From: Fibrobacterales bacterium
Lineage (GTDB): Bacteria > Fibrobacterota > Fibrobacteria > Fibrobacterales > JAOPTW01
NCBI GenBank assembly: GCA_051532055.1
Contig: JAOPTX010000032.1
Coordinates: 64,001-128,000 of the forward strand
Length of the DNA stretch: 64,000 nt
Direction of reading: 5' to 3'
The translations under genes were made by a program, and so were the position numbers. Positions 27,347 through 47,338 of this stretch are shown piece by piece (the first letter of the stretch is position 1; each line of letters opens with the position of its first letter). The notes beneath the pieces were generated by a model that was not told where the DNA came from, did no database searches, and saw only the letters and a program-made list of their open reading frames with translations.

Positions 27347-28873
27347 TTACCAACCAGTGCGCCCTAACCTAAAACCAATGGTATCACCAAACGTTGTAAA
27401 ACCTGCAAAAGGTTGATTATCTATTTTTTCGGCCCAACCTTCAGACTCTGACCCAAAATGTCCCCCCTTTAGTACAACCCTATTCCCTAAAAAATGTTCT
27501 TCTTGGGGTTGTACCATTTCTGCAACATTTCCTGCCATATTGTAGAGATTTGCCATAGATGGATACACAGAATTAACAGCATCAGTACGGCTTCCCGATA
27601 TAACAAAAGATTCATAGGCTTTTGAATTGTCAATCAAGCTGTCAGCAACGGTCCAAAAAAAGTTCCCACTGTTCCTTTTGCTATATGCAACCTCCCATTC
27701 AAGTTCTGTGGGGAGTCTAAAGCCCCCACTCTCTGAGTCGACCTCAAAACCTACCGTATCACTATTCCAAAAGGCTCGAGCATCACCAACCCCTACTATA
27801 GAATCAAACTGATACGCTATTTTATAGTTTTGATCTTTTGAAAGCTCATTACAAAATTGTGCTACATCGAAAAAAGAGACATTTACAACAGGATACCGCT
27901 CCGTTCCCTCATCAAATTCATAATCAGGGTAGAAACGCTGCCACAGCTCATTAGTCACTTCAAAATTGCCAATAGAGAAGGAGTCTGATTCCGTGGTAAT
28001 TGTCATTTTTTCAAATGAAGTGTCACTCAAATCACCAACGGCATTGAAAAGTCTCGCGGCCTCAAAAAAGATCATGCTATCCTGAGTAAGGTACCCCTGA
28101 CTCTCGAGCTTTTCTGCAATACCATTATGCGCTACAAGCTCATAATCACCAGAATAAAAGCGATCACGTAATACCGTTTTCGAATCCTCATACCCCGTAC
28201 CCATAAAAGAAAATAGGTCACTTTCAAATTCCGCTTTATTATTTCGTTTTTGGAGAAAGAGGTCAATAATTTGGTTAATAAATGCCACCTTATTTACCGC
28301 AACTGAGTCTGCAAAATGTTTTGAATCTGTATAAATATCGAAATAGGCCGTTCGAAGTGAATCACTGCTTTTATTATCTGCAATGTACTCCACAAGCTTT
28401 GTTTCAAATTCACTATAAGTTACCGTAGCAATATCCAAAGAAAGTTCTTCTAAAATAAAGCTATTCTCTATATCCTTGTGTACTACAAAATCTTCCAATT
28501 CAGTATCATTTATACCAAACTCTCTATATACAGCAACAACAGCATAACCATTTATAAAACAGGTGTAATCAACCGTTATTCTTTCACCACTCTTAGCTGA
28601 GACTGCAAAGGTTATCTCATTATTACCCGTTTTTGAGTCATAATTAATGTTTCTACAATCGGCCTGATCTAAAACAGCGTCGCTACAAAAGCTGGTGGTA
28701 TCTTCTATACCATTAATTTCTTGTACCACAACAATACTATCATAAGACTGGCCATAGGGAGTACTATTGATTGAGATAGAATAATCACGATCAAGAGGTC
28801 CTGAGCTTTCTGTCACTACGCATGCGTACAATACTAACGAAACCATTGATAGTAAAATAAATCGTAAGAGCAT
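27347..28873 (-). CDS. Lipoprotein with C-terminal FGE-sulfatase (SUMF1, C-type-lectin-fold) domain
   Basis: Lipobox LYAC; FEVTN, YPVVNVSF, FRLPTELEWE, LYNMAGNVAEM, KGG, GFRL. Confidence 0.85.
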   Translation of the reverse strand: MLLRFILLSMVSLVLYACVVTESSGPLDRDYSISINSTPYGQSYDSIVVVQEINGIEDTTSFCSDAVLDQADCRNINYDSKTGNNEITFAVSAKSGERITVDYTCFINGYAVVAVYREFGINDTELEDFVVHKDIENSFILEELSLDIATVTYSEFETKLVEYIADNKSSDSLRTAYFDIYTDSKHFADSVAVNKVAFINQIIDLFLQKRNNKAEFESDLFSFMGTGYEDSKTVLRDRFYSGDYELVAHNGIAEKLESQGYLTQDSMIFFEAARLFNAVGDLSDTSFEKMTITTESDSFSIGNFEVTNELWQRFYPDYEFDEGTERYPVVNVSFFDVAQFCNELSKDQNYKIAYQFDSIVGVGDARAFWNSDTVGFEVDSESGGFRLPTELEWEVAYSKRNSGNFFWTVADSLIDNSKAYESFVISGSRTDAVNSVYPSMANLYNMAGNVAEMVQPQEEHFLGNRVVLKGGHFGSESEGWAEKIDNQPFAGFTTFGDTIGFRLGRTGW

Positions 28874-30858: not shown

Positions 30859-31115
30859 CTGATTCCTACTCGTTTGTTCTCTCCCCCACAAGAGAGTGTG
30901 TGTATAGGCGATAATCTATATCGAATATGAGAAAAGTGTTATGAATACTTTATAATTTGTGCTTTTATGGCTCACATTTTTGGGCGGACTAACAAATTCT
31001 TAATAATTGCCCTATTCTTCTATACTGATCGATAAAAAGAAATCTATATTGAGACCCCTGGGGATTAGACAAAACAGCAGACTCTTTCTGCACTTAGATG
31101 AATATTGAGGCACCA

Positions 31116-32783
31116 ATGCAAAAGCTTATATTAGCGGTAAAATACGCACCTTCTCTTATTTCAGGCACACTCCTGAGTTCACTTATTCTCTTAAGCAGTT
31201 GCTCTCGAGATAACACCGTGGCCGCCGATGACAGCTCTCTATTGAGTAGCCAACACACAGGAACGCCTGATTCCACTCAAAGCTCTTCTCAAAATGCTCA
31301 AATGAGTTCTGGTATCTCACAAGGGTCATCTACTCAAACACCACTTTCGTCTGGTGCAAAAACATCTTCTGCAACCAATCCACAGTTCTCATTTTCACCC
31401 ATTTCAGGTGATGACAACACATCATCCAATAGTCAGAACCCAGACCAATCTTCTCCAGATCAAAACTCCTCAAATGGTAATACTAACTCATCAGCAGGAA
31501 CCTCTTCTCACTCAACCGACCCTAATGAAAGCTCTTCAGTTTCAAGTAGCGCTATAACACCGTCAAATTTTACTCTTGCACTCAATGATTCTGCCGACTA
31601 CCTCTTTAATCAAGATGTTGTACGTGAATACCATATTGTGCTCGACCCCGATTCCCTTGCCTTTATTGATAGTGACCCAGAAGCTGAAGACTATGTGGGT
31701 GGCTCTATAGTACTTGATGGCGACACCATTGGTCCTGTAGGCATTCGATACAATGGAGGTGACTGTGTAACCAACGGGCGACTCCCCAAAAATTGTCCCA
31801 AACTTTCAATGAAAATAAAACTTACCTGGAGCACCTCAAACCTTAGAATTTATGGGAAAAAGAGACTCATTTTTAAAGCGATGCTCAAAGATGACAGCCA
31901 AATGCATGAACGATTGGGCTTTTGGATCTATAATAAAATGGGAGTAAAAGCCCCCCGTGTTGTGCATGCGAAAGTATTTGTCAATGACACCTATGCCGGC
32001 CTCTTTAACCTCGTCGAAGAGGTAGATGGGAAATTTACCAAATCTCACTTCAGTACTGACGGTGATGGCAACCTCTACAAAGACACTTGGCCTACGGAAT
32101 ACACTGATACGGCTAAAACAGCTGAAAACTTTATAAACAACCTCGAAACCAATACCTCAACACCTAATGTCAATCTTATAAAAGGATTTGCGGACGAGAT
32201 TATTAGTGCAGGTACTCCCGCTGACGCTGCCTTTATTATTAGCAACTATATGGATGTCCCTACTATGATGAATTACATTGCTGTTGACCGCGCTATTCGC
32301 AATGACCAAGGTATTTTTCACTGGGACTGCAACAGCTCACAAACGAACTGTGAACCTGAAAACTTTTTCTGGTACGAAGAACCAACAAACGAACTCCTCT
32401 CTGTCATCCCGTGGGACCTCGATCGAGCTTTTGAAAACATCTCAGGCGAAAACAACGAGGACAGCTATATTAAAGACGTATGGAATGTTCAAAGTTCATG
32501 CACCCCTTTTATACAAGGAGGCGACCGTCAAATCTCTGCCGTTTGTGATGATGTTATTGAAGGACTTGGAACATTTACAAGCGAATATGCTGCCGCTCAA
32601 GCAAAGCTCAAACCTATCATGGGTGAAGCACTCCTCTTTTTGGAGCACATTAAGACTCAAATTTCTGATGCTACTGAAGCCGCATATACTGAGTATGGGA
32701 ATGAAGCGCTGAGCCCCGCTGACTGGGAAAGTGCTGTTTCTGAGTTGAAGGGTGATGTTGAAGATGCGCAGAGTGGGTTGTAG
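31116..32783 (+). CDS. Ser-rich lipoprotein with CotH-kinase-family domain (possibly inactive)
   Basis: Lipobox LSSC; Ser-rich linker; VGIRYNG, KLSMKIK, ERLG, YAGLFNLVEEVD, GNLYK, IPWDLD. The ORF track starts at 31098. Confidence 0.82.
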   Translation: MQKLILAVKYAPSLISGTLLSSLILLSSCSRDNTVAADDSSLLSSQHTGTPDSTQSSSQNAQMSSGISQGSSTQTPLSSGAKTSSATNPQFSFSPISGDDNTSSNSQNPDQSSPDQNSSNGNTNSSAGTSSHSTDPNESSSVSSSAITPSNFTLALNDSADYLFNQDVVREYHIVLDPDSLAFIDSDPEAEDYVGGSIVLDGDTIGPVGIRYNGGDCVTNGRLPKNCPKLSMKIKLTWSTSNLRIYGKKRLIFKAMLKDDSQMHERLGFWIYNKMGVKAPRVVHAKVFVNDTYAGLFNLVEEVDGKFTKSHFSTDGDGNLYKDTWPTEYTDTAKTAENFINNLETNTSTPNVNLIKGFADEIISAGTPADAAFIISNYMDVPTMMNYIAVDRAIRNDQGIFHWDCNSSQTNCEPENFFWYEEPTNELLSVIPWDLDRAFENISGENNEDSYIKDVWNVQSSCTPFIQGGDRQISAVCDDVIEGLGTFTSEYAAAQAKLKPIMGEALLFLEHIKTQISDATEAAYTEYGNEALSPADWESAVSELKGDVEDAQSGL

Positions 32784-32932: not shown

Positions 32933-35900
32933 TTGGAGTCCGTTGTGTCTTTCGGAAAAGCTAAAAACCCTCTTGACCATTCAATTTTTAATAAGTTTGA
33001 CGATGCTGCCTTCAGTCGCCCAAAATCTGGCGGCGGCGGCGGTGGTGGCCTTGGCCCTAACACAAATGCAGGAGGGGGTTCGTCTCGTGCGCCTCAATGC
33101 AATAGTGGATCAGGGGATACTGAAGAAGAAAATACCACATCGGAACAAGCGCCTATTCAAGAAGAGGAAGAAGAGGCTCAGGGCCAACTAGTAGATCTGA
33201 GTAATTTAGATTTTATTGATCCTGAAAATGCCACAATAGATGGAAATATAGAGGTTTCGGTAGAAGTTGAATATCTTACAGAGCGCACTCCACTAGAAAT
33301 AACCTTTACCCCAGAAGCTACCTTTGAAGGTTCTTCAGAAGCCGGGGTTCCGGTGACGAGCACTGTCAGTGATCGAGTGGCACAGGCAACAGTTAAGCTT
33401 GCTTTGCATCATGGGTATTATGAGAAAAAAGAGAAGTCTGCCGATGATACAGTTGAATATAGCGTAAAAGCAATCTGCTCTGCTGATGATACTGAGGTGG
33501 TTGCCGTGAGTACTATTAAACTTCCAGGAAAACCACTCTCTATCGATTGTATCGAGGTTATTGACCAAGTATTTAATCTTAATAGTGCTATTCCAGTTGT
33601 TGACGACAAAGGTACACTGGTGAGCATACTGAGCACCTGCTTTAAACATCTAGATGAGTGGCCCGATAAAGAACTGATGATTCTGGGCCATACCGATACC
33701 AGTGGTGAACCACAACCCAATTTTGATCTTTCTGAAAAGCGCGCACAGAGTATAAAAGCGTTATTGAGTAACGATGCTGAACTCTGGAAAGGGATGGCAA
33801 AAGCGCAAAGTGACGTTGTAGATTATCAACAAATAGTAAAAGGCTTAGATATACTCAAAGGATGGGGATGTGACCCAGGCACGGTAGATGGTGTAGATGG
33901 ATCGGCGACTCAAAAAGGATTGAAAGCTTTTCAGAGTGCCTATAATGAAAACTTTGATGGTTCTCTTGCGGTTGATGGAAACATTGGGCCCAATAGCTGG
34001 GCTGCACTGCTAGACGTCATCTATCAGACAGCCCTAGAGCAGTCTGAAATAAAACCGTCACGTATTAAGCCTCGTTTTCATGCCGAGTATGGAGTGTATC
34101 CTTGTGGTGAATCATTCCCCGTTGATCAGACCGGAATGGATGGCTTGCAATCGGCTTCTAATAGACGTGTGGAGATACACATGAGCGACCGGCCTAACCC
34201 TCCAAAGCTCCCTGAACCTATTCCAGAAATGGCCGTAGCAGATATTGTTCTTTACGATAGTGCTGTTACCGCAATGAATATTATTGCCATCATTAGGACC
34301 ACTGCGGGCTCAAATTGGCTTGATATTACCCTACATGATGATCTTGATAGTCCACTTGCGGGTTATACGGTGATCATTGAACTTCCAGATGGGACTCAAT
34401 TGGAAGAAGTACTCGATAATAAGGGTTCGGCCTCTGTTGAAATCACTGAACATAGAACGGTATCAGTCACAGTCAAAAGTGATGATGATTTTGAATATGA
34501 TGTAGTAATTGAAGATGATTCTGATCCGGAGAGTGAGCAAGCTGAGAAAAAAGAGCCAGAGTCTCTTATTAAAGTTGAGCGTACGGGCGATAAAGGAGAG
34601 AATTCGGTCTTAAGAAAAATAGTGACTCCACCATCACTGGTACTTTATAATCCCATTACAAAATCCTATACCGTTATAGACCCCAAAGAGACAGAGCTTT
34701 GGGAAAAATTTAGCGCCGAAGTGACAAATGTTGAAGAGATTCACGGAAAGATGCGTGAGTTTAGAGAGATGATTGCCAAAAATGAGGGTGATGCTGACGC
34801 CCTGGCAAAGGAGTCTCTTGATTTTACTACGGATCTTGTGAAAGAGCTCTACCCTGAAGGGGGAGAAAAGCTCGAAGAGATGATTGTACTCATAGATCAT
34901 CCAAGCTACGAGAACCTTATGAAGAACTCCACCTTTATTTATGCGCGAGATACTGTACTGAAAAAAGCTGGGCTTGAGTGGATCAAAGAAGAGAATGCCC
35001 TTGAAGACACCAAGGTGGGTAAGAAGCTTAAAAAGGCACTTCAGTTTAAAGGTACGTCTAAAAAGAAAAAACATTCCGGTGCGAAGTATGGACTGAGTAA
35101 AAATATTGAGTCGATGTATGCGAAAGATTATGAGCCGGACTTTGAGGCCCAGTGGCCTATTAAATGGAAGTGGGATACTGAGGTTGAGAGCTCGAGTGAC
35201 GCTCATGAATTTAAGATGACTAATGAGATGACCGTGTGTCGTTTTTTTGCCAAAGCACCGGCAGCACCGGAAATTGATTGGGAAAATATGAGCGTCAATC
35301 TAGAGTCACAAGGTGAAGTAGGCTATACCTTAGCGTCTGACACTCTAAAGGGTGAACTCTATGTTCCATCAAAAACTGGGTTTAATCTTTTTGCACCGAT
35401 TGAGTCTGTGGCAGAGCATGCTCCAGTATTTACTTTAAGCAAAAAGGCTAAAACTTCTCTTGATAAAAATAAAACAACAGGCAAAATATTAAATGGTGAA
35501 CTCTGTGTTCGTATTGCGACATCTTTTGAAGGCTCTGTTGAAGCGGGTGTAAAAGCTTGTTTCTCTTCTAAGGGAAGTATTGGGCTCAGTCAAGAGAATA
35601 AAGACATTATTAATCGACAGAAAAAGGTACTCACCGACCTAGTAAAATTACCTCATATGTGGGATGAAGAACCTGACGCTTTAGAGAAAGCCAAGAAAAA
35701 AGAACCCAAAGGGGGCAAGACTCGACACCTAGAAATGGGAGAACCTGTTGAGATAGAAGTTGAGGCATTTGCAGGTATTAAAGCCGGTGGCGAAATTAAA
35801 ACAGGTGTGGAGTGGTCAAAGGGTAAGTCTGAGACATTTGTAAATATCGCTTCATATTATGCAATTGCAGAGGGATACTTAGGTGTTGCTGTAGCATTGC

Positions 35901-36682
35901 GTTTAAAGATATTTTTTCGTAAAGGCAGAGTTTGTTTTCACTTTAAAGCGGGAGCGGCCTTTAAAATTGGTGGCTCAGTTGGGTGTGGATATGATGTCGA
36001 TCTTTGGCAGGGGTATGAGATTGTCAAGCATATTACAACCTGTATTGATTTTAGATACCTTGCGGAGATATGCCCAGTACTTCATCAGATCTATGTGCGT
36101 ATTTCAACAAAGATGGCTGTGCTTCGAGAAGATTATCAGGAATTTAAAGATAAGTTGATTGATGGTGGTACTGATCTTGTTGCTGATTTAGGAAAACTCT
36201 ATGCAAAAGTGTATGATCAAGGAATGAGGGAGGTTGATGAATTTGCGGATAAGCTTGATGATTATCTAGATGATACTGTTGAGTGGATTAATACAAGTTT
36301 CAAAGAAGTTTCAACTGAATTTATTAATGCGATTGATGATTATACTGATATGTTGCCTGAGTTTCCACCAGAGGTTACAGGTAACTTAATGCGTGTTGTG
36401 GATAGTTTTGTTAAAAATGAGGACAAAGAAACTAAGGGTGATGCATTTGCGACATTAATTGAAAGTGCCGCTGATGAAGGAGTCAGCTGGGTTATTAGAC
36501 AGTTTTCTGATGAGAAAGTACCTTTGAATAAGAATGATTCTAAGCGAGAGCTAGCTAAGAGCAAAGCAAAAGAATCAGGAGAAAGTAAACTTGCTGATAT
36601 AATAGACGAAAGACAGCTTAAAAAAATAGCAAAAGAGATTTTGCCTAAAAAAGGTTATACATGGCTTACAGAACTACTTTAA
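32933..36682 (+). CDS. Multidomain OmpA_C + peptidoglycan-binding + TTR-like protein with unknown C-terminal domain; candidate polymorphic toxin
   Basis: GHTDTSG..NFDLSEKRA and NRRVEI (OmpA_C) split by DPGTVDGVDG..T..GLKAFQ...VDGNIGP (PG_binding_1); WLDITLHDD...P...LPDG...LD..G; Gly-rich beta region. No signal peptide. The start may be GTG at 32945. Confidence 0.7.
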   Translation: MESVVSFGKAKNPLDHSIFNKFDDAAFSRPKSGGGGGGGLGPNTNAGGGSSRAPQCNSGSGDTEEENTTSEQAPIQEEEEEAQGQLVDLSNLDFIDPENATIDGNIEVSVEVEYLTERTPLEITFTPEATFEGSSEAGVPVTSTVSDRVAQATVKLALHHGYYEKKEKSADDTVEYSVKAICSADDTEVVAVSTIKLPGKPLSIDCIEVIDQVFNLNSAIPVVDDKGTLVSILSTCFKHLDEWPDKELMILGHTDTSGEPQPNFDLSEKRAQSIKALLSNDAELWKGMAKAQSDVVDYQQIVKGLDILKGWGCDPGTVDGVDGSATQKGLKAFQSAYNENFDGSLAVDGNIGPNSWAALLDVIYQTALEQSEIKPSRIKPRFHAEYGVYPCGESFPVDQTGMDGLQSASNRRVEIHMSDRPNPPKLPEPIPEMAVADIVLYDSAVTAMNIIAIIRTTAGSNWLDITLHDDLDSPLAGYTVIIELPDGTQLEEVLDNKGSASVEITEHRTVSVTVKSDDDFEYDVVIEDDSDPESEQAEKKEPESLIKVERTGDKGENSVLRKIVTPPSLVLYNPITKSYTVIDPKETELWEKFSAEVTNVEEIHGKMREFREMIAKNEGDADALAKESLDFTTDLVKELYPEGGEKLEEMIVLIDHPSYENLMKNSTFIYARDTVLKKAGLEWIKEENALEDTKVGKKLKKALQFKGTSKKKKHSGAKYGLSKNIESMYAKDYEPDFEAQWPIKWKWDTEVESSSDAHEFKMTNEMTVCRFFAKAPAAPEIDWENMSVNLESQGEVGYTLASDTLKGELYVPSKTGFNLFAPIESVAEHAPVFTLSKKAKTSLDKNKTTGKILNGELCVRIATSFEGSVEAGVKACFSSKGSIGLSQENKDIINRQKKVLTDLVKLPHMWDEEPDALEKAKKKEPKGGKTRHLEMGEPVEIEVEAFAGIKAGGEIKTGVEWSKGKSETFVNIASYYAIAEGYLGVAVALRLKIFFRKGRVCFHFKAGAAFKIGGSVGCGYDVDLWQGYEIVKHITTCIDFRYLAEICPVLHQIYVRISTKMAVLREDYQEFKDKLIDGGTDLVADLGKLYAKVYDQGMREVDEFADKLDDYLDDTVEWINTSFKEVSTEFINAIDDYTDMLPEFPPEVTGNLMRVVDSFVKNEDKETKGDAFATLIESAADEGVSWVIRQFSDEKVPLNKNDSKRELAKSKAKESGESKLADIIDERQLKKIAKEILPKKGYTWLTELL

Positions 36683-37422
36683 TATTTTTTTTTCTCACAG
36701 TTCTAGTGTACTCAAAAGGCATCACTAAGGACTGTAAAACAGTTAACAACAAAGAAATATGTAAAGTTTATAAAAATAAGATTTTGCGAAAAGTTACTGA
36801 GTATACTATATCAGAGAATACCGGTATTGAAACTACTTATCACGAAAATGGAAAGTTAAAATCAAAATTTAAGATGGTAAAAGGGCAATTTATTGACACA
36901 ATGTTTGTCTATCATGAAAACGGAAACCTGGAATCATCTTCTCCATTTATAAATGGAGAAGAAAATGGATTTGTAAAATATTGGTATTCAAATGGACAAC
37001 TGAAAATCATTAACAATTATGACGATGGAAAAAAAGATGGGGAATATAAGAAATTCTTTGAGAATGGAGTTTTAAAAGAGAAAGGCCAATTTGTAAAGAA
37101 AAGACGTAATGGAATCTTCACAGAGTTTTGGCCCAATAAACATAAGAAGATGATAACAGAATATAAAATGAATCAACCGCTTGTTGAAGAACGTTTTTTT
37201 AGAATATCTGGGAGAAATCAAAAGACAACTTTTATTAAGAAAAGAAAAATCGATACATTTACCAGTTATACCAAACCTGGCAAAGTCTATTTTTCAGTGA
37301 CAGACCTAAAAAAGGGCTATATCAAGTTTCTTGATCCAGTAACGGAAGAGTGTGTGGCTCATAAAATTAAGCGCTATCGTCGTATTGAAGAAGACCTGAA
37401 ATGCAGTGATGTGACAGGCTAA
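36661..37422 (+). CDS. Exported MORN-variant/YwqK-like repeat protein; candidate immunity protein
   Basis: Signal peptide; YHENG/WYSNG/FFENG repeats; overlaps the upstream gene by 22 nt. Confidence 0.75.
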   Translation: MAYRTTLIFFFLTVLVYSKGITKDCKTVNNKEICKVYKNKILRKVTEYTISENTGIETTYHENGKLKSKFKMVKGQFIDTMFVYHENGNLESSSPFINGEENGFVKYWYSNGQLKIINNYDDGKKDGEYKKFFENGVLKEKGQFVKKRRNGIFTEFWPNKHKKMITEYKMNQPLVEERFFRISGRNQKTTFIKKRKIDTFTSYTKPGKVYFSVTDLKKGYIKFLDPVTEECVAHKIKRYRRIEEDLKCSDVTG

Positions 37423-37444: not shown

Positions 37445-38746
37445 TTAAATTAAAATGTTCTTTGAAATTGCAGATTTTAAATTTTTGTTAACTTCTGCAA
37501 TTGAGGCAAAGTGCTCCCAGTCTGATACCACTTCTTTAATATCACTAATAATCTTGTCAGCTTTTTTAATGTTATTTGCTTCAGCAATTGTCATCAAATC
37601 TTCCTTTATGATACTGTGATACTTGCCGTTAATACTTAAAGTGTGTTGACTCACCCAAATATTAGTGGGATCATAAGAATAACAGATATCATATGCAGGG
37701 GATAATTTCCACATCTCTCCCTGCTTAAGCATAAAAGCAAAATTTTTAGTGTGATCATCATAGTTGGTTGCATACGCATTAAATACCATTCTTCGAAACA
37801 TCTCTTTAGCCTCTGGATATGACAATTTGAGAAGCCGCATTGTTTGAAATAGCTGCTCATAACTATGACCCTGCAGATTCTTATAGTCAAAATGTTGGAT
37901 ACCACAAAAAGTTTGAATATGATGCTTGGTGTTATTCCCTCCTCTATCAAAACGTTTTGTCATAAAGTGAGCTCGGCCATTTTCCTCTATGAGCTTAGAT
38001 TCCATCATATTTATGCCGCACTCTTTTGCCATCAAATAATATGCATACTCTACTCGCCCAAAACCGTGACTCACTCCAAACTGGGCATCACTTACACCAT
38101 CTAATTTAATGAGCCAGTGTTCATACCCTTTAGGTGCATTTGCTTGACCTGAACGGATATCACCTGTTTTAGAATTATAGGTGATAACAGCCTTAGGTCT
38201 TGCTCCACCTGCAGAAGTCCCAATCTTAAGAATATCACTCATAGCTTTTTTTTCATCTTCATGAAGATTGGTATTAAAACCTTCTCTGTGCGAAAGTAGC
38301 TTACTTGCTGATTCTACTAGACTTTGTAGCTCAATTGAAAATGAATTCGTATTTGCGCTTGTAATAACAGGTTCAAACTCTAAAGCCCCCATGCCTCTTT
38401 TACCTATAAAGCATAATTGCTCAACAGGATTCATACTTCCCATAGGTCGGTCATTTTGCGCGAGCCATAAGTCAATTAATTGATTACCATATCTATCGGG
38501 GAGTGCATCAGCCAAAAGGCCAGGTAAGCCCTTGAAAGTAGACATGTCTTCATTTTTCTGCTTTCGCAATGCGGGGAACTGAAATATCCTTTGATCTGGA
38601 TCTAAGGGCATTTTCATTGGTGACAATTCATATCCTTTTGAAATAAATTTTTTATCATATTCAAAAATTGCTACTTGTCTTTCTTTATCCCACCTAACTG
38701 CTCCAACATCTTCACCCCAAATTTTTACTAATGCTACATCTACCAT
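37445..38746 (-). CDS. hipA: Type II TA toxin, HipA-family kinase
   Basis: N-terminal couple_hipA region (GLLADALPDRYG, RGMGALEF); GTSAGGARPKA loop; NYDDHTKNF; LSPAYD. Confidence 0.93.
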   Translation of the reverse strand: MVDVALVKIWGEDVGAVRWDKERQVAIFEYDKKFISKGYELSPMKMPLDPDQRIFQFPALRKQKNEDMSTFKGLPGLLADALPDRYGNQLIDLWLAQNDRPMGSMNPVEQLCFIGKRGMGALEFEPVITSANTNSFSIELQSLVESASKLLSHREGFNTNLHEDEKKAMSDILKIGTSAGGARPKAVITYNSKTGDIRSGQANAPKGYEHWLIKLDGVSDAQFGVSHGFGRVEYAYYLMAKECGINMMESKLIEENGRAHFMTKRFDRGGNNTKHHIQTFCGIQHFDYKNLQGHSYEQLFQTMRLLKLSYPEAKEMFRRMVFNAYATNYDDHTKNFAFMLKQGEMWKLSPAYDICYSYDPTNIWVSQHTLSINGKYHSIIKEDLMTIAEANNIKKADKIISDIKEVVSDWEHFASIAEVNKNLKSAISKNILI

Positions 38747-39093
38747 TCACTTTCCTCTTCTCCCTTTGATTTTTTCTTTCTGGCTCTCGATCGCAATTTA
38801 TTCTTTGATTTTAATTTCGCATATTCAATAGGGCTTATTTCATTCGACACTTGAAACGCATCAAGTACATGTAACAAATCAAGTACACGCAATACTTGAA
38901 TTAAACTATTCAATGAAGAGTTATCCCCTCGCTCTAATAGGCTTAATGTAGAACGACTTATTCCAGCCGCTTCCGCTACATCGCTTTGAGATTTATTTTG
39001 ATTTAATCGATGATGCTGGACAAATCCCCCTATAACCCCCCTTAATCCACCATCACTCATCGAATGCCAGTTATTGTCGTATAAATCACTCAT
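38740..39093 (-). CDS. hipB: HTH (XRE) antitoxin, HipB-like
   Basis: SQSDVAEAAGISRSTLSLLERG HTH; overlaps the hipA start. The ORF track starts at 39108. Confidence 0.85.
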   Translation of the reverse strand: MSDLYDNNWHSMSDGGLRGVIGGFVQHHRLNQNKSQSDVAEAAGISRSTLSLLERGDNSSLNSLIQVLRVLDLLHVLDAFQVSNEISPIEYAKLKSKNKLRSRARKKKSKGEEESEW

Positions 39094-39318
39094 AATAAAC
39101 CTTATCAAGTATTAATGCATTAAATATCATGCGCTACACCTTTAATATACATGAATCAACTGAAATATGTATATTAAATCACACATTAAGTACAATTTAC
39201 AACCATAGTGCGCACTATATCATACACAATATAACATTTTCGCTCACAATATTATATCATAAAAACGATCTAATTCCTAATTAACTATGTCAACGGTTTG
39301 AAGTCAGAAACACCCTAC

Positions 39319-41142
39319 TTACTCAACATTCAAATACACCGTTGTCGTATCACGACCACTCCGCACATCAGTCACCAATACCTTTAAGCTATCTAAACCT
39401 TGATAGCCTCCTTGAGGGGTATAAGTCACTACACCATCCGCAGTTATCGATACCAATCCTTCTTTGGGTTCTGATAAAACACTCCAAGTCAACCCATCAG
39501 GATCATCTACATCAGTAGCAACAGCCGACCATATAGGACTCGCTCCTGCCCCATGAGATAGAGCGAGTACTTGCTCTGGCTTATTCGTAATAATAGGATT
39601 ATCATTCACTTCATTAATAACCACTGGAATTCGCAAAGTGTCAAAATAGACATCATCCGTTACAATTACATTTAACGTATCAGCCCCATATTGATTATTC
39701 AGGCCACCATAGGTTACACTTTTAATTGTTCCCGATCCACTTATGCCAGAGGCCTCACCTATCATAGCGCCAAAGTATGACCACTTGAGCTGGTTTCCAT
39801 CAATATCACCAGCAGAAAGGACAAGCTCTTTAGATGTATCTTCATCTATTTTTAATACAAAACCTGCCGGGAGTGCATTAAAAATAGGTGCGTTGTCATT
39901 TTGATTTACAACTCGAATCACGATGTCCTTATAGGTCGTATCTAGAGCGTCATAAACTCCAATCGAAAAAGGTACCGTTTTAACCTCTTCAAAGTCAAAA
40001 GGCATTAATGAACTTATTGTCCCCATTGAATCAATAGCAAACAATTGAGAGTCTAGAATGAATTTCACTGCGTCGCCATCTATCTCATCAACAGAAATTG
40101 TTGCTATTTCTCCTTGTATATTCTCATTAACGACGAGTGTATCAACGGTGACAACAGGGGGCGTATTTACACGTACCGTTACCGTTGCAACACCACTCAG
40201 ATTACGACTGTCTACTGCTCTAAAAGAGATGGGAAGTATGCCAGACTCCCAAAACACTTTTTTGTACACGAGGTTATTTTCATTCGAAATCTCATATATC
40301 GAGTCATTATCAAAATCCCATTCATACCGGATAATGGATTCATCATCAGTAACCACTGTGGACAAAAGAAGGGTATCACCAACTCGAACTGTGGTATCTT
40401 TTTGATTGAACACAATGCTAGGTGCTTTGTTATGAAGAAGATGTTGTACTAAGGAATCTTGGCCAACAGTTGTGGGAAATATCGTTGTAAAAGCTTCTTC
40501 ACTGAGCTGCCCCCGACTTGATAGAGTATCTCCAATAACCCGAATGAGATCTGTGGTATCCAACCCATTCAATTGGAAGTGCAAATGATGGTTTTTATAT
40601 TGAGAGTAGAGTCCTGACCCATTTAATCCATCTGCATCAACAATAGAGCGCGTAAACAAAGAATCTAACACTGCTTTTCTATCTGCAAGCTCCATCAAAG
40701 GCCTGCCCTGAACAATTTTTGCATATTCAGTTAAACAGTCAGCACTTAACGTATCCACCACGCCATCAATAGCAACTACTTCTGCATCGAGTAGAAACGT
40801 ACTACTTCGTTTCAGCAGTGGTAATCCTTGACTATAGGCAACATACATTAAGTCAACATCATCAGATTTACCACTGCTTTCGGCTGCAACTCTAATCGTA
40901 ATGTTATCTTGGACAGAATCTACAACGGTTGTCGTAAATTCGTGGGTAAGGTAGGTACGCCGTGAAGACTCATCATCAACAGCCAAATCGACTACTACTG
41001 AATCTATCACCAACGCCTTATTTTTAGTAATAGAAACAACAATCTCTCGTCGGCTCTCGCCATATTCAAGGACATTACAACTGCTGAGAAGCTGCAGAGC
41101 AAAGACCGACCATAGTAACAATTTCGTATTCATATTTCTCAT
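39319..41142 (-). CDS. Lipoprotein with PKD, cadherin and Ig-like (Big_9) repeats
   Basis: Lipobox LSSC; YEWDFDND (PKD), FDFEE and NQNDNAPIF (cadherin), VTYTP..GYQGLDS. Likely start MRNMNTK at 41142; the ORF track starts at 41220. Confidence 0.78.
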   Translation of the reverse strand: MRNMNTKLLLWSVFALQLLSSCNVLEYGESRREIVVSITKNKALVIDSVVVDLAVDDESSRRTYLTHEFTTTVVDSVQDNITIRVAAESSGKSDDVDLMYVAYSQGLPLLKRSSTFLLDAEVVAIDGVVDTLSADCLTEYAKIVQGRPLMELADRKAVLDSLFTRSIVDADGLNGSGLYSQYKNHHLHFQLNGLDTTDLIRVIGDTLSSRGQLSEEAFTTIFPTTVGQDSLVQHLLHNKAPSIVFNQKDTTVRVGDTLLLSTVVTDDESIIRYEWDFDNDSIYEISNENNLVYKKVFWESGILPISFRAVDSRNLSGVATVTVRVNTPPVVTVDTLVVNENIQGEIATISVDEIDGDAVKFILDSQLFAIDSMGTISSLMPFDFEEVKTVPFSIGVYDALDTTYKDIVIRVVNQNDNAPIFNALPAGFVLKIDEDTSKELVLSAGDIDGNQLKWSYFGAMIGEASGISGSGTIKSVTYGGLNNQYGADTLNVIVTDDVYFDTLRIPVVINEVNDNPIITNKPEQVLALSHGAGASPIWSAVATDVDDPDGLTWSVLSEPKEGLVSITADGVVTYTPQGGYQGLDSLKVLVTDVRSGRDTTTVYLNVE

Positions 41143-41146
41143 AGTA

Positions 41147-44100
41147 TTAGTAGGTAAACTTAAGTACATACACGCCAGCATCCAAATGCAATGGAATAGA
41201 GACTGACGCTGCATCAACATTTAATTGAGAAACCAGCTCTCCACGGAGGGTAAAAATAGAGCACTCTTCTACATCATCTGGAATCGAAAACTCAGTTAAT
41301 GCACCAGCTGAATTATTTACAATAACCATTTTTCTCTGATCATCAATTAACGTATTACCATAGGTAATAGGTGAAATAGAGTCTACAGGATTGGGTAATG
41401 CAATAAGCGTCGTATCGCCCCGCTCTGGCTGTGGGACCGTTACAGGTACATCTATTTGTGTAGAACTCACAGCACTACCACCCTGCGCTGAAGAAAGCGA
41501 AATAGAATTGTCAATCACCTGTACTACTAGTGTATCTGTTTCAGACACTGCCAATCCATCGGTAACCTGAATTGGTATAGCAAGACGCCCTGTAAAGCCA
41601 TCCTGAGCAATCACGTTGGTACCATACGCTGTAAAATAGTCACTAAACCCTATAAGTACTGACAGCGCATCACCATCAGCATCAACTGCTTTAATCAAAG
41701 TATCGGCAACAGCTATCGTTGTTTGAGGCCCAATAGAAAGAGGTGCTATAGATTCAATATACGGTGCATCATTCACCGGCATAACATCAACAGATAACAG
41801 AACACTTTGAGACGTGTCAATGCCATCAGTGGCTGAGACGGGCACTTGCAGTGCACCATTATAATTACTTTCAGGAGTGACGGTTAATCCACTTACCGTA
41901 TAATGTTCACCGTGCCCTACGAGTATATTGAGATTCTCATTGTCTACATCAAGTAAGGTTACCATGTCTTTGGTAAATACAATGGGTGTATCTTCATTTA
42001 TTTTCTGCGACTTGGGAAGGAGTACTTGTGGCACATCATTTACCGGAGCAACCACAACAGTCATAGAAATATTTTTGATCGTATCTCTACCATTGGTTAT
42101 TGCTACCGGTACCGATAATTCGCCATTAAAATGCAAGGTTGGTGTAATCACATTATCAACGATTGTATAATTTGCACCACTGCTAATAATAACACTCAAA
42201 GGATCATCGACATCAACCGCATCGGTCATAGACAGAGTTATCTCTAGTGGAGCATCTTCATCAATTTCCTTATTATCAACCTTTGAAAAGGTAAGAGGGT
42301 CATCCACCGCATCTACTTGAATATGGAGCTGAATGGTATCCGACCTATCGGTACCATCAGACACACAAACAGGAACTGATAAGGCCCCAAAGAAATGTTC
42401 ATGGGGTAGTATTGAATCATTTCTTAAAACATATGATGAATCTGACAAAACAATCAGTGACAGATTATCACCTTCCACATCTGTAGCTTCATACATTATA
42501 GTGCTGATATCAATTCCTACCTCTTCTACTGTAGTTATTGAATCCACCTTCTTAAAGTCTGGTTTGTCATTAACAGAGTTGATAATAAGCTCCATTGGAA
42601 CATAACTCGTTGTCTCTGTCCCATCGGTAATTGCTATTTGCAGTTGAATTGTTCCATGAAAATTTTCTACTGGTTCCACAATTGCATCGGTGATCACAAC
42701 ATCTTTATGAGGTTCAATAACTACTTGTAGAGGGTCATTATCATCATCTTTTGCATCGGTCATTAGGGACGTGAGCTCGATGAGGCCATCTTCATCGATT
42801 ATTTGGTTATGGGCGAGGGATAGCGTCGGTAGGTCGTTTATTGGAGTTACTGTTAATTTAAAATCAACGGGGCCAATGATGTCTGTTCCGTCATCTACAG
42901 ATACTGGAATTGTAAGATTACCATTAAAGTTATGGCTGGGAATGATAGTAGTTCCTGAAACTGTGTAATTATCACCTTTTTGAATTAAAAAAGTAAGGTT
43001 ATCATCATCAACATTGAGGACATCAGTTATTTGCTGAGTAAGGGTTATATCTGAGTCTTCATCTATTGTTTTTGGTTGAATAGCAGTGAAGATGGTGGGG
43101 TCATTTACTGGTTGGACGGTAATTACAATTTCTGCTGTGTCTTTGAGTTCTCCATCTGTAATAATATGTTTCACCAAAAGCTCCCCATTCCAATGTTCAT
43201 CGGGAGAGATTATTAAAGTTTCATTTTCTATTCTATGAGTGGCATTTATTAATTCTCCTGAAATAACTTTTTCAAATTCTATTATACTAATATGGTCGGT
43301 GTCGTTTTGTAGTAATTCGGAGATTAATACAGATAATTCTATATCTTCTTGGATGATGTAAGCATCATTAACAGCATCTGGTTTATAATTTTTTTGTTTT
43401 ATAAACACAGCGAAGCTTTGATTACTCCACAAAGTATCTGAATTAAAATTTATTCCTGACCGATATACCACAGTATCTTTAGTCCCAATCGAATCGCCCT
43501 CATCAAACAAATACCACGATAGGGAATCTGTTGTCCCATTATTTAAAACACTATCAAATTTAAAAAATGTTGGCCGAGTAAATGTTTGGCCATTAACATC
43601 GTTTTTAAGAATACCATTAATCTTAGTTTTTCCACTGATTCCAATCGTTCCAAAAGTAAGGTCGTTATCTATTATTGCAGTAGGTGGATTTATAACATTT
43701 CTCAATGCAGGGTATGTATCACCATTACTCATTCTCCATATATATTGAAAGTTCCAATTTTCAAATAGGCTAATATTTTTCATGTTCTCTTCTGTTACCC
43801 CTTCGTAATTCGTACCATCACCATCAGATGTTGACTGTCCAGATGCATCAATCGCCCAATAACAATCTTCTATAACTACATCATAATACGCACTTCCAAT
43901 CAAGCCCCCCCCTCCAATTACACTACCAACCGAGTACACATTTCTTATTGTATCACTAGCATACCCAACTGCCCCCCCAACAGAGTAACGTCCCTCTATA
44001 CTTCCACTATTATAGCAGTCCTCTATCACGCTGATTGAATCTGAAAATCCATAATTTGTTTTCCCGACGAGTCCCCCAATATAAGAGTCTCCCATAACTC

Positions 44101-47014
44101 TTACTTGACTAATACATTTTTCTAAAACACCATTGTTTCCACCAACAAGGCCACCCAGATATCTTCCTCCTTCAATTTGTCCTTTCGCCACTACATTCCT
44201 AACTTGCCCAGAATTATATCCTACCACTCCACCAATGTATTCAGAATTAGCTTTTCCACTGATATTCACTTCAACTGAGACACCCTCAATTAATCCCTTA
44301 TTAGTTCCCGCCACCCCTCCAATATTATTTCTACTACTTATTATTTCTCCATTAAACTCTATTTCAACCTTCAAATTTTTGACTATTGCATTTTCATCTA
44401 TTACACCAAATAACCCAACATTATCATTTAATGGTTTATTAATATACAAATTCCTTATTCCAAAATTATTTCCAATAAACACGCCTTGAAAAGGTGTATT
44501 AAATGTCCCAATTGGACTAAAATACTCGTTTTTAGATTGTACAGCATCAATATTATTTTTTAACCTATAAATCCCATCGATTGGATATTTATGATTAATC
44601 CCAATATGTTTTAGCTCTGTATAACTGAGGAGATCAATAGTATCAAAAGGACATGCAACATACGTAACCCCCCCCCAAATAGTATCATCTATACCAGAAA
44701 GTATACCAGGCCTATAAAAAAGATAAATCGAATCCTTCACACTATTTAATTTATACTTACCGGAATATTGTGCTTCTGATATTGTATCATTTAGCAAACT
44801 AATATCATTATTTATAAACTGTTTAAAATCATTTAAACTCGGAATAGAATCTAAAACATCTGGAACTCCAACAGGCCCATTAGGTACATTTCTCAAAAAT
44901 GGAGACGTACTTGTATTTATATCCCAAGTATTAATAAAATCAAAATTATTAAAATTTTCTTTCTCTACTAATTCTCCAAACTGCAAACCTCTACAATGAC
45001 TTTCATCAGCATCAAAATAATCCCATGTAGTTTCACTATTCCAGTAAGAATTTGAATCACTATAATTAATAGCTCCTATAGGAGAAACCCGCCTCTCATT
45101 TGATTCAATGATACCATTGAAAAAATTATTCCTATTGGAAGCATAGCCAAAATATGTTTTACCCCCACTCAAGCCTCCAGAATATGTATTAACTCCTCTA
45201 CTATCTATAAAAGTCTCACTTGTTATATACCCCGTTGAATAACTATTTTCTAAGCATGTATAACTTATCCCAAGCCCAATAATTCCACCAGCGGATCCTG
45301 AAACATCAAAATTATTTACTGTAGCACTACTATATATTTCATTTAGACAAATGGTGCCATTATTTTCATTGCTACCTATTACCCCTCCAGTATACTTAGC
45401 ACCTTCAGTAATTCCATGAGTATACACTCTATCGATTTGGCCAGCATTTTTCCCAGCAAGAATACCCACATGATCTCTCCCTTTTACTTTTCCAATCACT
45501 CCAACATCAACTATCCATGACTCTTCACCGGCTACTCCAATTAACCCAATATTGTCTTCAAACTGCCGATCAATATTAAAATTGAAAATATGATAACCAT
45601 TCCCATTTAATGTTCCGGTAAATGGACTTTGAATTGTGCCAATAGGTATGAATCCTTCCCCACCATTTTCTGATTTTGAATTTCTTGCATCAATATCATT
45701 AATTAAGTTATAATAGCCATCAAGTGGATAGTCCTCATGTACTCCAATTTTTTTCAGATCTTGATAGGTCGAAATATTTTTTTGATCAAATGGTACCACA
45801 AGCTTTGCCTCAGCTCCCCAAAGAGTATCACCGTTCTGCAATATTTCGCCTGGTATATACATAAAATAGAGTGAATCTCTTGAATCGTTTCTAACACTAT
45901 ACCCTGTTGATCTTACTTCAGTAATCGTATGATTTTCATAATCTATATCATTTACCAAAAAAGCATTTAAATTTAATGTATCAGAAATACTAGAAGATAT
46001 ATCATTAATACCTTCTGGTGGATTTTCCAGATGTATAAGAGCAGGAAACCCACCATGATCATTATTCCATATTGTGGTAAAATTCCAATTTTTAAAATTG
46101 TTTACATCCCTCATTTCGCTTGATGTCAAACCTTTATATGATACCCCGTCTTGCCCCGCTGAGGTCAATACTCCACTTCGCTCTATGTCCCAATAACAAT
46201 TTTCTACAACCAGTGTTCCCATTGTAAACCCTAGCAACCCCCCTGAATTTCTAGGCACCCTTCCATAGCTATAGGAGTTAATGATAGTTGAGCTTCTTGC
46301 TGCCCGTATAAGGCCACCACACTTATCAACATTACATTCACTTTCTGATTGAATCACTGTATAAGCATAACTGTCTCTTATTATACCATCAGTATCCATA
46401 CCAACTAACCCACCACCAGAATTAATCGAGCCACCAGCATAACTTTGAACTATTTCTCCACTATTATTACCAACTAAACCCCCGCCTCTTGAATTATTTT
46501 GAGTTATAGAAAAACTTCTTTCAATTCTCCCATCATTATCTCCTACTAAGCCACCTGGCAACTCATACCCATATGCCTCAACAACACCCATACTATAACA
46601 ATTTATGATTCTTCCTTTGTTTATAGCTGTAAGCATACCAACAGTTCTATGACCACTAACAAACCCTTTCACACCAAGATTTTTTATTATTGCCGTATCT
46701 GAAACCATATAGAACAGTCCCGAGGCATACTTATCTGGAGATAGACTAAAATTATGAATTTTATGATTCCCCCCATCAAACGTTCCCCGGAATTCATCTA
46801 AGATTGCAATAATCACTCCTTGCCCACCAGCGTCAATATCCTGGGTCATTTCATAATGCGCCCCAAGATCATCATTCACCTTAAGCAGGTCCTCATAATC
46901 CTCTATCAAATACGGCCCCCCCACAGTCCCAGACCCACTCAAAACCCCACCAACAGCAAAAAGATTCACCGATAATAAGCAAAGAAAGAAAAAAGAAGTA
47001 ATGACTTGTTTCAC
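41147..47014 (-). CDS. Large secreted adhesin-like protein: three GLUG-type modules, tandem cadherin-like repeats, T9SS-like C-terminal domain
   Basis: Signal peptide from GTG at 47014 (GAGG RBS); GGLVG repeats; repeated V.PVNDxP...I.ED units; C-terminal SIFTLRGELV...GVYVLK. Confidence 0.8.
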   Translation of the reverse strand: MKQVITSFFFLCLLSVNLFAVGGVLSGSGTVGGPYLIEDYEDLLKVNDDLGAHYEMTQDIDAGGQGVIIAILDEFRGTFDGGNHKIHNFSLSPDKYASGLFYMVSDTAIIKNLGVKGFVSGHRTVGMLTAINKGRIINCYSMGVVEAYGYELPGGLVGDNDGRIERSFSITQNNSRGGGLVGNNSGEIVQSYAGGSINSGGGLVGMDTDGIIRDSYAYTVIQSESECNVDKCGGLIRAARSSTIINSYSYGRVPRNSGGLLGFTMGTLVVENCYWDIERSGVLTSAGQDGVSYKGLTSSEMRDVNNFKNWNFTTIWNNDHGGFPALIHLENPPEGINDISSSISDTLNLNAFLVNDIDYENHTITEVRSTGYSVRNDSRDSLYFMYIPGEILQNGDTLWGAEAKLVVPFDQKNISTYQDLKKIGVHEDYPLDGYYNLINDIDARNSKSENGGEGFIPIGTIQSPFTGTLNGNGYHIFNFNIDRQFEDNIGLIGVAGEESWIVDVGVIGKVKGRDHVGILAGKNAGQIDRVYTHGITEGAKYTGGVIGSNENNGTICLNEIYSSATVNNFDVSGSAGGIIGLGISYTCLENSYSTGYITSETFIDSRGVNTYSGGLSGGKTYFGYASNRNNFFNGIIESNERRVSPIGAINYSDSNSYWNSETTWDYFDADESHCRGLQFGELVEKENFNNFDFINTWDINTSTSPFLRNVPNGPVGVPDVLDSIPSLNDFKQFINNDISLLNDTISEAQYSGKYKLNSVKDSIYLFYRPGILSGIDDTIWGGVTYVACPFDTIDLLSYTELKHIGINHKYPIDGIYRLKNNIDAVQSKNEYFSPIGTFNTPFQGVFIGNNFGIRNLYINKPLNDNVGLFGVIDENAIVKNLKVEIEFNGEIISSRNNIGGVAGTNKGLIEGVSVEVNISGKANSEYIGGVVGYNSGQVRNVVAKGQIEGGRYLGGLVGGNNGVLEKCISQVRVMGDSYIGGLVGKTNYGFSDSISVIEDCYNSGSIEGRYSVGGAVGYASDTIRNVYSVGSVIGGGGLIGSAYYDVVIEDCYWAIDASGQSTSDGDGTNYEGVTEENMKNISLFENWNFQYIWRMSNGDTYPALRNVINPPTAIIDNDLTFGTIGISGKTKINGILKNDVNGQTFTRPTFFKFDSVLNNGTTDSLSWYLFDEGDSIGTKDTVVYRSGINFNSDTLWSNQSFAVFIKQKNYKPDAVNDAYIIQEDIELSVLISELLQNDTDHISIIEFEKVISGELINATHRIENETLIISPDEHWNGELLVKHIITDGELKDTAEIVITVQPVNDPTIFTAIQPKTIDEDSDITLTQQITDVLNVDDDNLTFLIQKGDNYTVSGTTIIPSHNFNGNLTIPVSVDDGTDIIGPVDFKLTVTPINDLPTLSLAHNQIIDEDGLIELTSLMTDAKDDDNDPLQVVIEPHKDVVITDAIVEPVENFHGTIQLQIAITDGTETTSYVPMELIINSVNDKPDFKKVDSITTVEEVGIDISTIMYEATDVEGDNLSLIVLSDSSYVLRNDSILPHEHFFGALSVPVCVSDGTDRSDTIQLHIQVDAVDDPLTFSKVDNKEIDEDAPLEITLSMTDAVDVDDPLSVIISSGANYTIVDNVITPTLHFNGELSVPVAITNGRDTIKNISMTVVVAPVNDVPQVLLPKSQKINEDTPIVFTKDMVTLLDVDNENLNILVGHGEHYTVSGLTVTPESNYNGALQVPVSATDGIDTSQSVLLSVDVMPVNDAPYIESIAPLSIGPQTTIAVADTLIKAVDADGDALSVLIGFSDYFTAYGTNVIAQDGFTGRLAIPIQVTDGLAVSETDTLVVQVIDNSISLSSAQGGSAVSSTQIDVPVTVPQPERGDTTLIALPNPVDSISPITYGNTLIDDQRKMVIVNNSAGALTEFSIPDDVEECSIFTLRGELVSQLNVDAASVSIPLHLDAGVYVLKFTY

Positions 47015-47338
47015 AGAAACCTCACAATAAATGCGCAAAGCATGAATGCTCTACAAAGAATATATCCCCAGACTGAGCAATAATAGAAAGCATTAGGCAA
47101 CACTGCTCAATGTTAATCCGAGTTTACATTCACACTCAATAAGTGTGACAACAAACACATTAAAATCCTCAAAAAGCCCCACTTATGTGGCGCCAAACCA
47201 AACCACGTAAATATTTTCAATACAGTAAGTTAAAAAAACGACTTACAGTGAACTATCAAGTATTTTCTTTATTAGATTTAAAAGACGCTACTCGCATCAG
47301 AACGAAGTAGTAACTACTGGGGACATAAAGGATTTCGA

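Follow-up and report, generated by a model that had tools for sequence, protein, structure and literature searches.

The window analysed here is the 64,000-nt stretch at positions 64,001 to 128,000 of contig JAOPTX010000032.1 from a Fibrobacterales bacterium (assembly GCA_051532055.1), and its subject is a pair of overlapping genes that may encode an effector of a type VI secretion system (T6SS) and the corresponding immunity protein (Table 1). The first open reading frame (ORF), at 32933-36682 (+), comprises 1249 amino acids (aa) counted from a TTG codon, and the second, at 36661-37422 (+), comprises 253 aa and overlaps the first by 22 nt; the pair and its overlap are as given in the initial annotation, and the sequence motifs quoted there are present in the translation of the large ORF. 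The large gene probably starts at a GTG codon at 32945, giving 1245 aa, a start preferred because GGAG lies 6 nt upstream, the database protein P0001 starts there and the paralogues open with the same DHS-type motif; residue numbers follow the 1249-aa frame throughout. A CotH gene adjoins the locus on one side and a HipA-helix-turn-helix (HTH) pair on the other, and the locus is syntenic in the sister genome G238. The closest relative of the large protein is a Fibrobacterales bacterium protein with 88% identity over the C-terminal core, and word-based homologue searches with this core and with alignment A1 returned nothing beyond the protein itself and its orthologue.

Table 1 Features of the gene pair in window coordinates
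Feature	Coordinates	Strand	Basis or remark
GGAG ribosome-binding site and likely GTG start (32945)	32935..32947	+	start-site reading
Gly/acidic low-complexity leader, DHS-type motif common to paralogues	32945..33178	+	translation, paralogue comparison
N-domain (residues 83-200), without Pfam family; candidate T6SS delivery domain	33179..33532	+	copies, co-occurrence, varied C-termini
OmpA_C-like domain with PG_binding_1 insert (33851-34009)	33533..34297	+	Pfam
Small beta segment, TTR/Ig-like by eye only	34298..34507	+	weak Big_1 match
Tse3-family core, first part (residues 560-760; conserved E649, Y670)	34610..35212	+	profile/alignment
Tse3-family beta-domain (residues 761-1030), three predicted long amphipathic hairpins	35213..36022	+	models, alternation
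Helical tail (residues 1031-1249)	36023..36682	+	predicted MORN-binding surface 1129-1136, 1166, 1225-1239, 1247-1249
Signal-peptide MORN_2 repeat protein, predicted cognate immunity	36661..37422	+	Pfam, locus survey, complex model

Judged by sequence homology, the C-terminal ~690 aa of the large protein belongs, as a distant member, to the Tse3 family of Acinetobacter baumannii. The initial annotation recognised no family in residues 520-1249 and proposed a new toxin there; there is indeed no Pfam or NCBIfam match, and neither library found a domain in the core, including among 45 scanned homologues, while a new toxin is not supported in view of the homology to Tse3. A search of 1.84 billion representatives with the core gave 57 matches. 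The motifs of the core recur, in unchanged order, in the Tse3 sequence printed in supplement 4 of PMC6833914, and a motif scan led to 12 loci, every one with a Tse3-type ORF, among them one (L051) that agrees with the printed Tse3 of strain ATCC 17978 in length (1001 aa) and at both ends. A profile built from Fibrobacterota only, with the genome's own sequences left out, matched the window core at 6.7e-55 and all 12 Tse3-type ORFs at 5e-21 to 3e-16 (Z=1e9), and HHalign aligned the Fibrobacterota core with Tse3 at 99.4% over 334 columns. A profile of 18 proteobacterial sequences placed the three core genes of the genome at the top of its 9,698 ORFs (window protein, 3.9e-24), and among 378 controls for the Tse3 homology, shuffled or reversed, the highest score was 4.9 bits.

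Across species the core is the conserved module and the N-termini vary: among the 45 scanned relatives LysM was found in 7, OmpA and/or PG_binding_1 in 6, and amidase, SLT and Hcp in one each (the Hcp fusion being P0036). In Vibrio, Aliivibrio, Cronobacter and Cupriavidus the core gene lies directly behind vgrG or vgrG-DUF4123 and before a gene of the FGE/SUMF1 type, and the Pseudoalteromonas copy is accompanied by two FGE genes with no vgrG within view. This layout of the proteobacterial relatives is that of tse3-tsi3 in the accessible part of the Lopez preprint (10.1101/2021.05.21.445229). Three LysM-core variants (L045, P0042 and P0033) lack the helical tail and have part of the beta-domain repeated, and the gene next to L045 is vgrG. 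In the ESM Atlas the core led to clusters of hypothetical proteins at 0.88, a lead only, and P0044 to LysM clusters; PDB sequence searches with alignments A1, A3 and A4 returned nothing significant.

We take Tse2 of Acinetobacter baylyi to be ACIAD3114, the counterpart of Tse3. According to the parts of the sources at hand, Tse3 is required for VgrG3-dependent killing of E. coli (PMC5061870), and A. baylyi Tse2 kills efficiently and lyses slowly (PMC7274471) and was termed “of unknown mechanism” in 2025 (PMC12663445). Neither a mechanism nor a MORN immunity protein for Tse3 was found in the literature covered, which mostly excludes subscription journals, and the mode of action of Tse3 has been open since 2016.

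The 253-aa protein matches MORN_2 (E 5e-18), which bears out the MORN repeats described earlier, and it has a predicted signal peptide, with a charged N-end and a hydrophobic stretch at residues 6-17, as read from its sequence. We surveyed 30 Fibrobacterota loci with an independent profile, made from MORN genes of the same genome that are unrelated to this one; 4 end within the core gene, and in 21 of the 26 evaluable loci a MORN gene lies directly downstream of the core. In three of these 21 (L032, L033 and L037) orphan tail fragments follow the MORN gene. The complex model of the large protein with the MORN protein scored 0.70 against 0.00 for the best control, a mark that 116 of 157 solved pairs attain, as do 2 of 215 mismatched ones, and that is roughly valid with the alignments used; at least 73% of contacts were shared between runs, with a partner pLDDT (predicted local distance difference test score) of at least 77. 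The MORN protein is predicted by this model to contact the helical tail, which is also the fastest-diverging part between orthologues: in comparison with the G238 orthologue, identity is 55% over residues 1210-1249 and 83-99% in the core up to residue 1160, and in the MORN protein it is 40% over residues 20-130 and 73% in the remainder.

What appears, from gene content, to be new here is that a MORN protein takes the place of the FGE-fold Tsi3 beside a Tse3-family core in Fibrobacterota, so that one toxin family would be paired with two unrelated immunity folds. In a quick tree, in which the window row sits on a long branch, 18 MORN-linked and 8 FGE-linked cores are parted by one branch (Shimodaira-Hasegawa-like approximate likelihood-ratio test 99); since this branch coincides with the phylum split, the tree shows one immunity switch without its direction. 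An FGE gene 4 kb upstream of the pair (27347-28873) was considered as Tsi3-like and rejected, with 8.4 bits on a Tsi3-like profile.

Secretion-system genes, sought elsewhere in the genome as proposed in the initial annotation, are present: contig C1 carries tssK, L, M, A, B, C, hcp, tssE, F, G and H together with the single vgrG of the genome, and a PAAR gene nearby, the matches to TssL and TssM scoring below the NCBIfam cut-offs. The core profile matches 51 of 296 Fibrobacterota genomes; by match range 44 of these include the core (three as short pieces) and 7 the N-terminal part only. TssC is found in all 51 profile-positive and all 44 core-positive genomes versus 115 of the 296 overall (the unpublished genome G253 is counted within 51, 115 and 296, and not within 44). 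In the largest family, f4, only 14 of 151 genomes have TssC, and in genus g9 none of 101. A single literature search on this phylum yielded no paper on its T6SS effectors. A further region on C1 (G000 C1:30759-39490, L011) contains PAAR followed by a gene of 369 aa, one for an 1179-aa protein and a convergent pair of lipoprotein-like genes that are near-duplicates, and is likely a further effector with duplicated immunity.

No signal peptide or transmembrane helix was found in the large protein. Its N-domain spans ~115 aa and has no Pfam or PDB sequence match. Seven copies occur in the genome: on C32 and C37 with Tse3 cores, on C74 with the N-module and the core in two separate genes, on C3 and C49 ahead of HExxH proteins, on C27 ahead of another beta-rich end and on C22 standing alone behind a DUF4123 adaptor. 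The N-domain was detected in 50 of the 296 Fibrobacterota genomes, all 50 TssC-positive. Among 20 long examples chosen by hand from other genomes, 16 carry OmpA and/or PG_binding_1 and 3 are Hcp fusions, and their C-termini include HExxH types (7), Het-C, lipase, amidohydrolase, the Tse3 core and others. The shared N-terminus with exchanged C-termini for which the initial annotation proposed a test is seen both within the genome and among the chosen proteins, and a common N-terminus with diverse C-termini is a feature of polymorphic toxin-immunity systems. We infer that the N-domain may be a T6SS delivery domain, because it is N-terminal, stand-alone or fused, combined with many C-termini and, among the Fibrobacterota surveyed, confined to T6SS-positive genomes. 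In these respects it resembles the WHIX, MIX and FIX delivery domains as described in the available parts of PMC12135965 and PMC10673891, and differs from them in having no Pfam or PDB sequence match; LysM and PG_binding_1 are also reported in vgrG loci in the same part of PMC10673891.

The OmpA match is best over residues 244-280 (E 8.6e-6, slightly below the Pfam cut-off) and that of PG_binding_1 covers residues 307-359 (E 4.1e-6, above it); past the insert, at residues ~408-412, comes the OmpA_C end motif NRRVE, which agrees with the earlier description of an OmpA_C domain split by PG_binding_1. The TTR-like segment claimed next to it fared less well: the quoted residues are present, and a TTR-like domain is not established, as the best Pfam match of residues 456-525 is a weak Big_1 (E 0.018), no significant match was found among PDB sequences and a profile of 8 similar spike-protein/effector segments did not score the segment.

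Several related arrangements were seen alongside. Three core relatives carry a WHxxxH motif; in P0020, P0052 and L035 the core stands behind the WHxxxH segment (seen by eye), two of them with amidase or SLT in front, and these are possible double-toxin effectors of the WHIX type. Candidate metallopeptidase effectors make up an HExxH family without a Pfam entry, in which C-terminal His/Cys residues are conserved; its members are fused to or lie behind the N-module on G000 C3, C49 and C22 (L001, L003 and L006) and are present also at L064, L067, L069, L072, L076, L077 and L079. At G000 C74:2-2665 (L005) a Tse3-family core contains an inserted OmpA/PG-binding-like domain, with a separate N-module gene ahead.

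The beta-domain was modelled with AlphaFold on the compact homologue L020 (82 sequences), giving pLDDT 87, a predicted template modelling score (pTM) of 0.78 and six strands of 25-27 residues. In the 51-sequence alignment the i,i+2 alternation of apolar and polar positions was significant in 8 of 8 segments (p 0.02 or less), these segments having been picked after the profile was viewed; such amphipathic hairpins are also a feature of beta pore-forming toxins. No strong transmembrane helix occurs in the core (Kyte-Doolittle maximum 1.45). P812, G872, G984 and G1013 are invariant in the 51 sequences and W961, G816, E649, Y670, R770 and P1146 nearly so, mostly G, P and W with no clear catalytic set. 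Fold searches of PDB and viral libraries gave no match at E 0.001, including to solved beta pore-forming toxins of the aerolysin and MACPF/gasdermin types; the best Z was 5.9 for the whole core (helical repeats) and 8.3 for the beta-domain at a root-mean-square deviation (rmsd) of 14 (FyuA), which does not make the fold new.

Taken together, the large protein and its MORN neighbour very probably form a T6SS effector-immunity pair. The interbacterial effector with an exported MORN partner proposed in the initial annotation is thereby supported, the envelope being the most likely target, except that the toxin is not new. Four points have direct support: homology with Tse3, presence of T6SS genes, conservation of the MORN neighbour and alternation of hydrophobic residues. 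On this basis the T6SS of the genome would inject the large protein into rival bacteria, the N-domain module would serve in loading onto the apparatus and the OmpA/PG-binding region in retention on prey peptidoglycan, and the long amphipathic beta-hairpins would insert in a membrane and permeabilise it, the toxin perhaps oligomerising into a beta-barrel. The exported MORN protein would bind the helical tail and protect kin, possibly by capping the tail and so blocking assembly. We consider the chances of a non-enzymatic, periplasm-acting toxin that perforates the membrane as an oligomeric beta-barrel to be nearly evenly balanced; given a T6SS effector-immunity pair, membrane perforation takes a little over half of the probability. 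The exported immunity protein, the cell-wall-binding N-termini, the amphipathic hairpins and the slow lysis fit such a perforating, non-enzymatic toxin best.

A number of observations weigh against this interpretation. The link to Tse3 is distant: direct BLASTP reached a best E of 1e-4, and a Tse3-only profile puts the window ORF first of 9,698, yet at E 0.14. The gene is not adjacent to vgrG, PAAR or an adaptor and the T6SS cluster is on a different contig, and co-occurrence with T6SS is not an independent test because the genomes are related. In 5 of the 26 loci no MORN was scored; the next gene encodes AraC in one of them, VgrG in another and an exported, possibly MORN-like protein in a third, and is unclear in the other two. 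The confident model is that of the homologue L020; the window's own core has pLDDT 67 and an uncertain first hairpin. Strands of 25 residues are about twice the length that one bilayer needs, and one-sided sheets occur in lipid-carrier and scaffold proteins too. The predicted MORN site is on the tail and not on the hairpins, and E649, Y670 and R770, conserved in 49 of 51 sequences, are possible catalytic residues.

In the main alternative, which we hold fairly unlikely, the genes form a T6SS effector-immunity pair whose toxic activity resides in the helical tail or at an enzymatic site made up of E649/Y670/R770, and the beta-sheet only delivers or positions this activity. That the MORN protein is predicted on the tail only, that the tail diverges fast and that orphan cassettes contain tail fragments, as orphan toxin modules have, is consistent with a toxic tail; two of these cassettes include a further MORN gene (before the fragment in L032, before and after it in L033). 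The tail of the Fibrobacterota clade conserves D and R in 19 of 19 sequences and H in 18 of 19, but the window protein has E where the clade has His, and the transmembrane helices of colicin-like tails are missing. For an enzyme the three conserved polar residues speak; a GxSxG lipase (Tle) was considered and rejected, being unlikely because the serine of the Tse3 motif is not conserved (Ser in 21 of 51 sequences) and is replaced by Tyr982 in the window protein. Improbable, in our estimate, is an effector whose strands, resembling those of outer-membrane proteins, jam or hijack the BAM/TAM/Lpt machinery of the prey or extract lipids, with no pore formed. Of the top structural matches of the beta-domain, segments of Omp85/LptD barrels give the lowest rmsd (TamAB Z 7.6, rmsd 4.6 over 111 residues; LptD Z 7.2; BamA Z 7.0), but these Z-scores are within the range of generic antiparallel sheets at 5-6% sequence identity; the slow lysis by Tse2 would fit a failure of envelope assembly. 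We give very little credence to a role other than as a weapon, in which an envelope or T6SS accessory protein would be anchored to the cell's own peptidoglycan with MORN as a structural partner. OmpA_C/PG-binding domains also occur in T6SS anchoring proteins (TssL-long/TagL), and the synteny with G238 would suit such a role, whereas the lack of a signal peptide or transmembrane helix, the homology to a proven toxin, the Hcp fusions, the patchy distribution (44 of 115 TssC-positive genomes) and the rapid paired divergence at the predicted interface argue against it.

With Tse3-Tsi3 of A. baumannii ATCC 17978 and A. baylyi (ACIAD3114) the present pair shares a ~550-residue core with the same ordered motifs, the T6SS association and an exported immunity-type neighbour. 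Tsi3, however, has the FGE fold, and its gene frequently lies on the opposite strand and in arrays, whereas the neighbour here is a MORN protein on the same strand, overlapping the toxin gene; the N-terminus consists of the N-domain and OmpA/PG-binding, the gene is not beside vgrG and the core belongs to a separate Fibrobacterota clade. As FGE immunity and an adjacent vgrG are missing, the protein is of the Tse3 family without the pair being a Tse3-Tsi3 module. YwqK of Bacillus subtilis is presumably a MORN-variant protein. The YwqJ-YwqK pair is likewise a polymorphic toxin with a downstream antitoxin but, in the consulted portion of PMC8321402, a cytoplasmic one of the LXG/type VII secretion system with an unrelated toxin, in contrast to the exported MORN protein here. 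VP1390-VP1389 of Vibrio parahaemolyticus, compared by its description in the accessible text of PMC8728615, is also an OmpA_C T6SS effector that acts in the periplasm and has a signal-peptide immunity protein; in contrast to the present case, its action leads to blebbing lysis and depends on the MIX co-effector VP1388. Split N-module and toxin genes (C74 and L014) recall the binary module of VP1390 as outlined there.

A broader and tentative view, which we hold more likely to fail than to stand, is that all members of the Tse3 family, from those of Acinetobacter and Vibrio through to those of Fibrobacterota, are T6SS pore-forming toxins of an unrecognised beta-barrel class, in which each subunit has a new fold and contributes three long hairpins, that the immunity scaffold switched once between FGE and MORN, that an exchangeable helical tail sets specificity and that Fibrobacterota load many toxins via a delivery domain of their own. 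With the distant Fibrobacterota members added, the alignment is broad enough to yield a confident model of the beta-domain and to narrow the conserved residues to a short list, so that a pore, an enzyme and a toxic tail can now be told apart by experiment. With T6SSs in 115 of the 296 Fibrobacterota genomes, the candidate delivery domain may be used for effector mining.

A promoter scan at the locus gave results at chance level. One DNA run, which may be the source sample, spans 30 of 30 locus bins with zero differences, and contigs from RNA libraries span 16 of the 30, including 1,228 nt of the core, plus adjoining genes, with DNA carry-over possible. The HipA kinase and HTH pair (37445-39108, -) lies right after the MORN gene and is likely a mobile insertion, as no match was found at the same place in G238. 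Proteins with CotH kinase domains are encoded at 31098-32783 and 47339-52237 (+), one of them with lamin-tail and InlB B-repeat domains. Between these, overlapping ORFs of 1963 and 633 aa at 39319-47038 (-) contain Big_9/cadherin-like repeats, GLUG and PKD and would encode a large adhesin whose gene may be split or frameshifted near 41147-41220.

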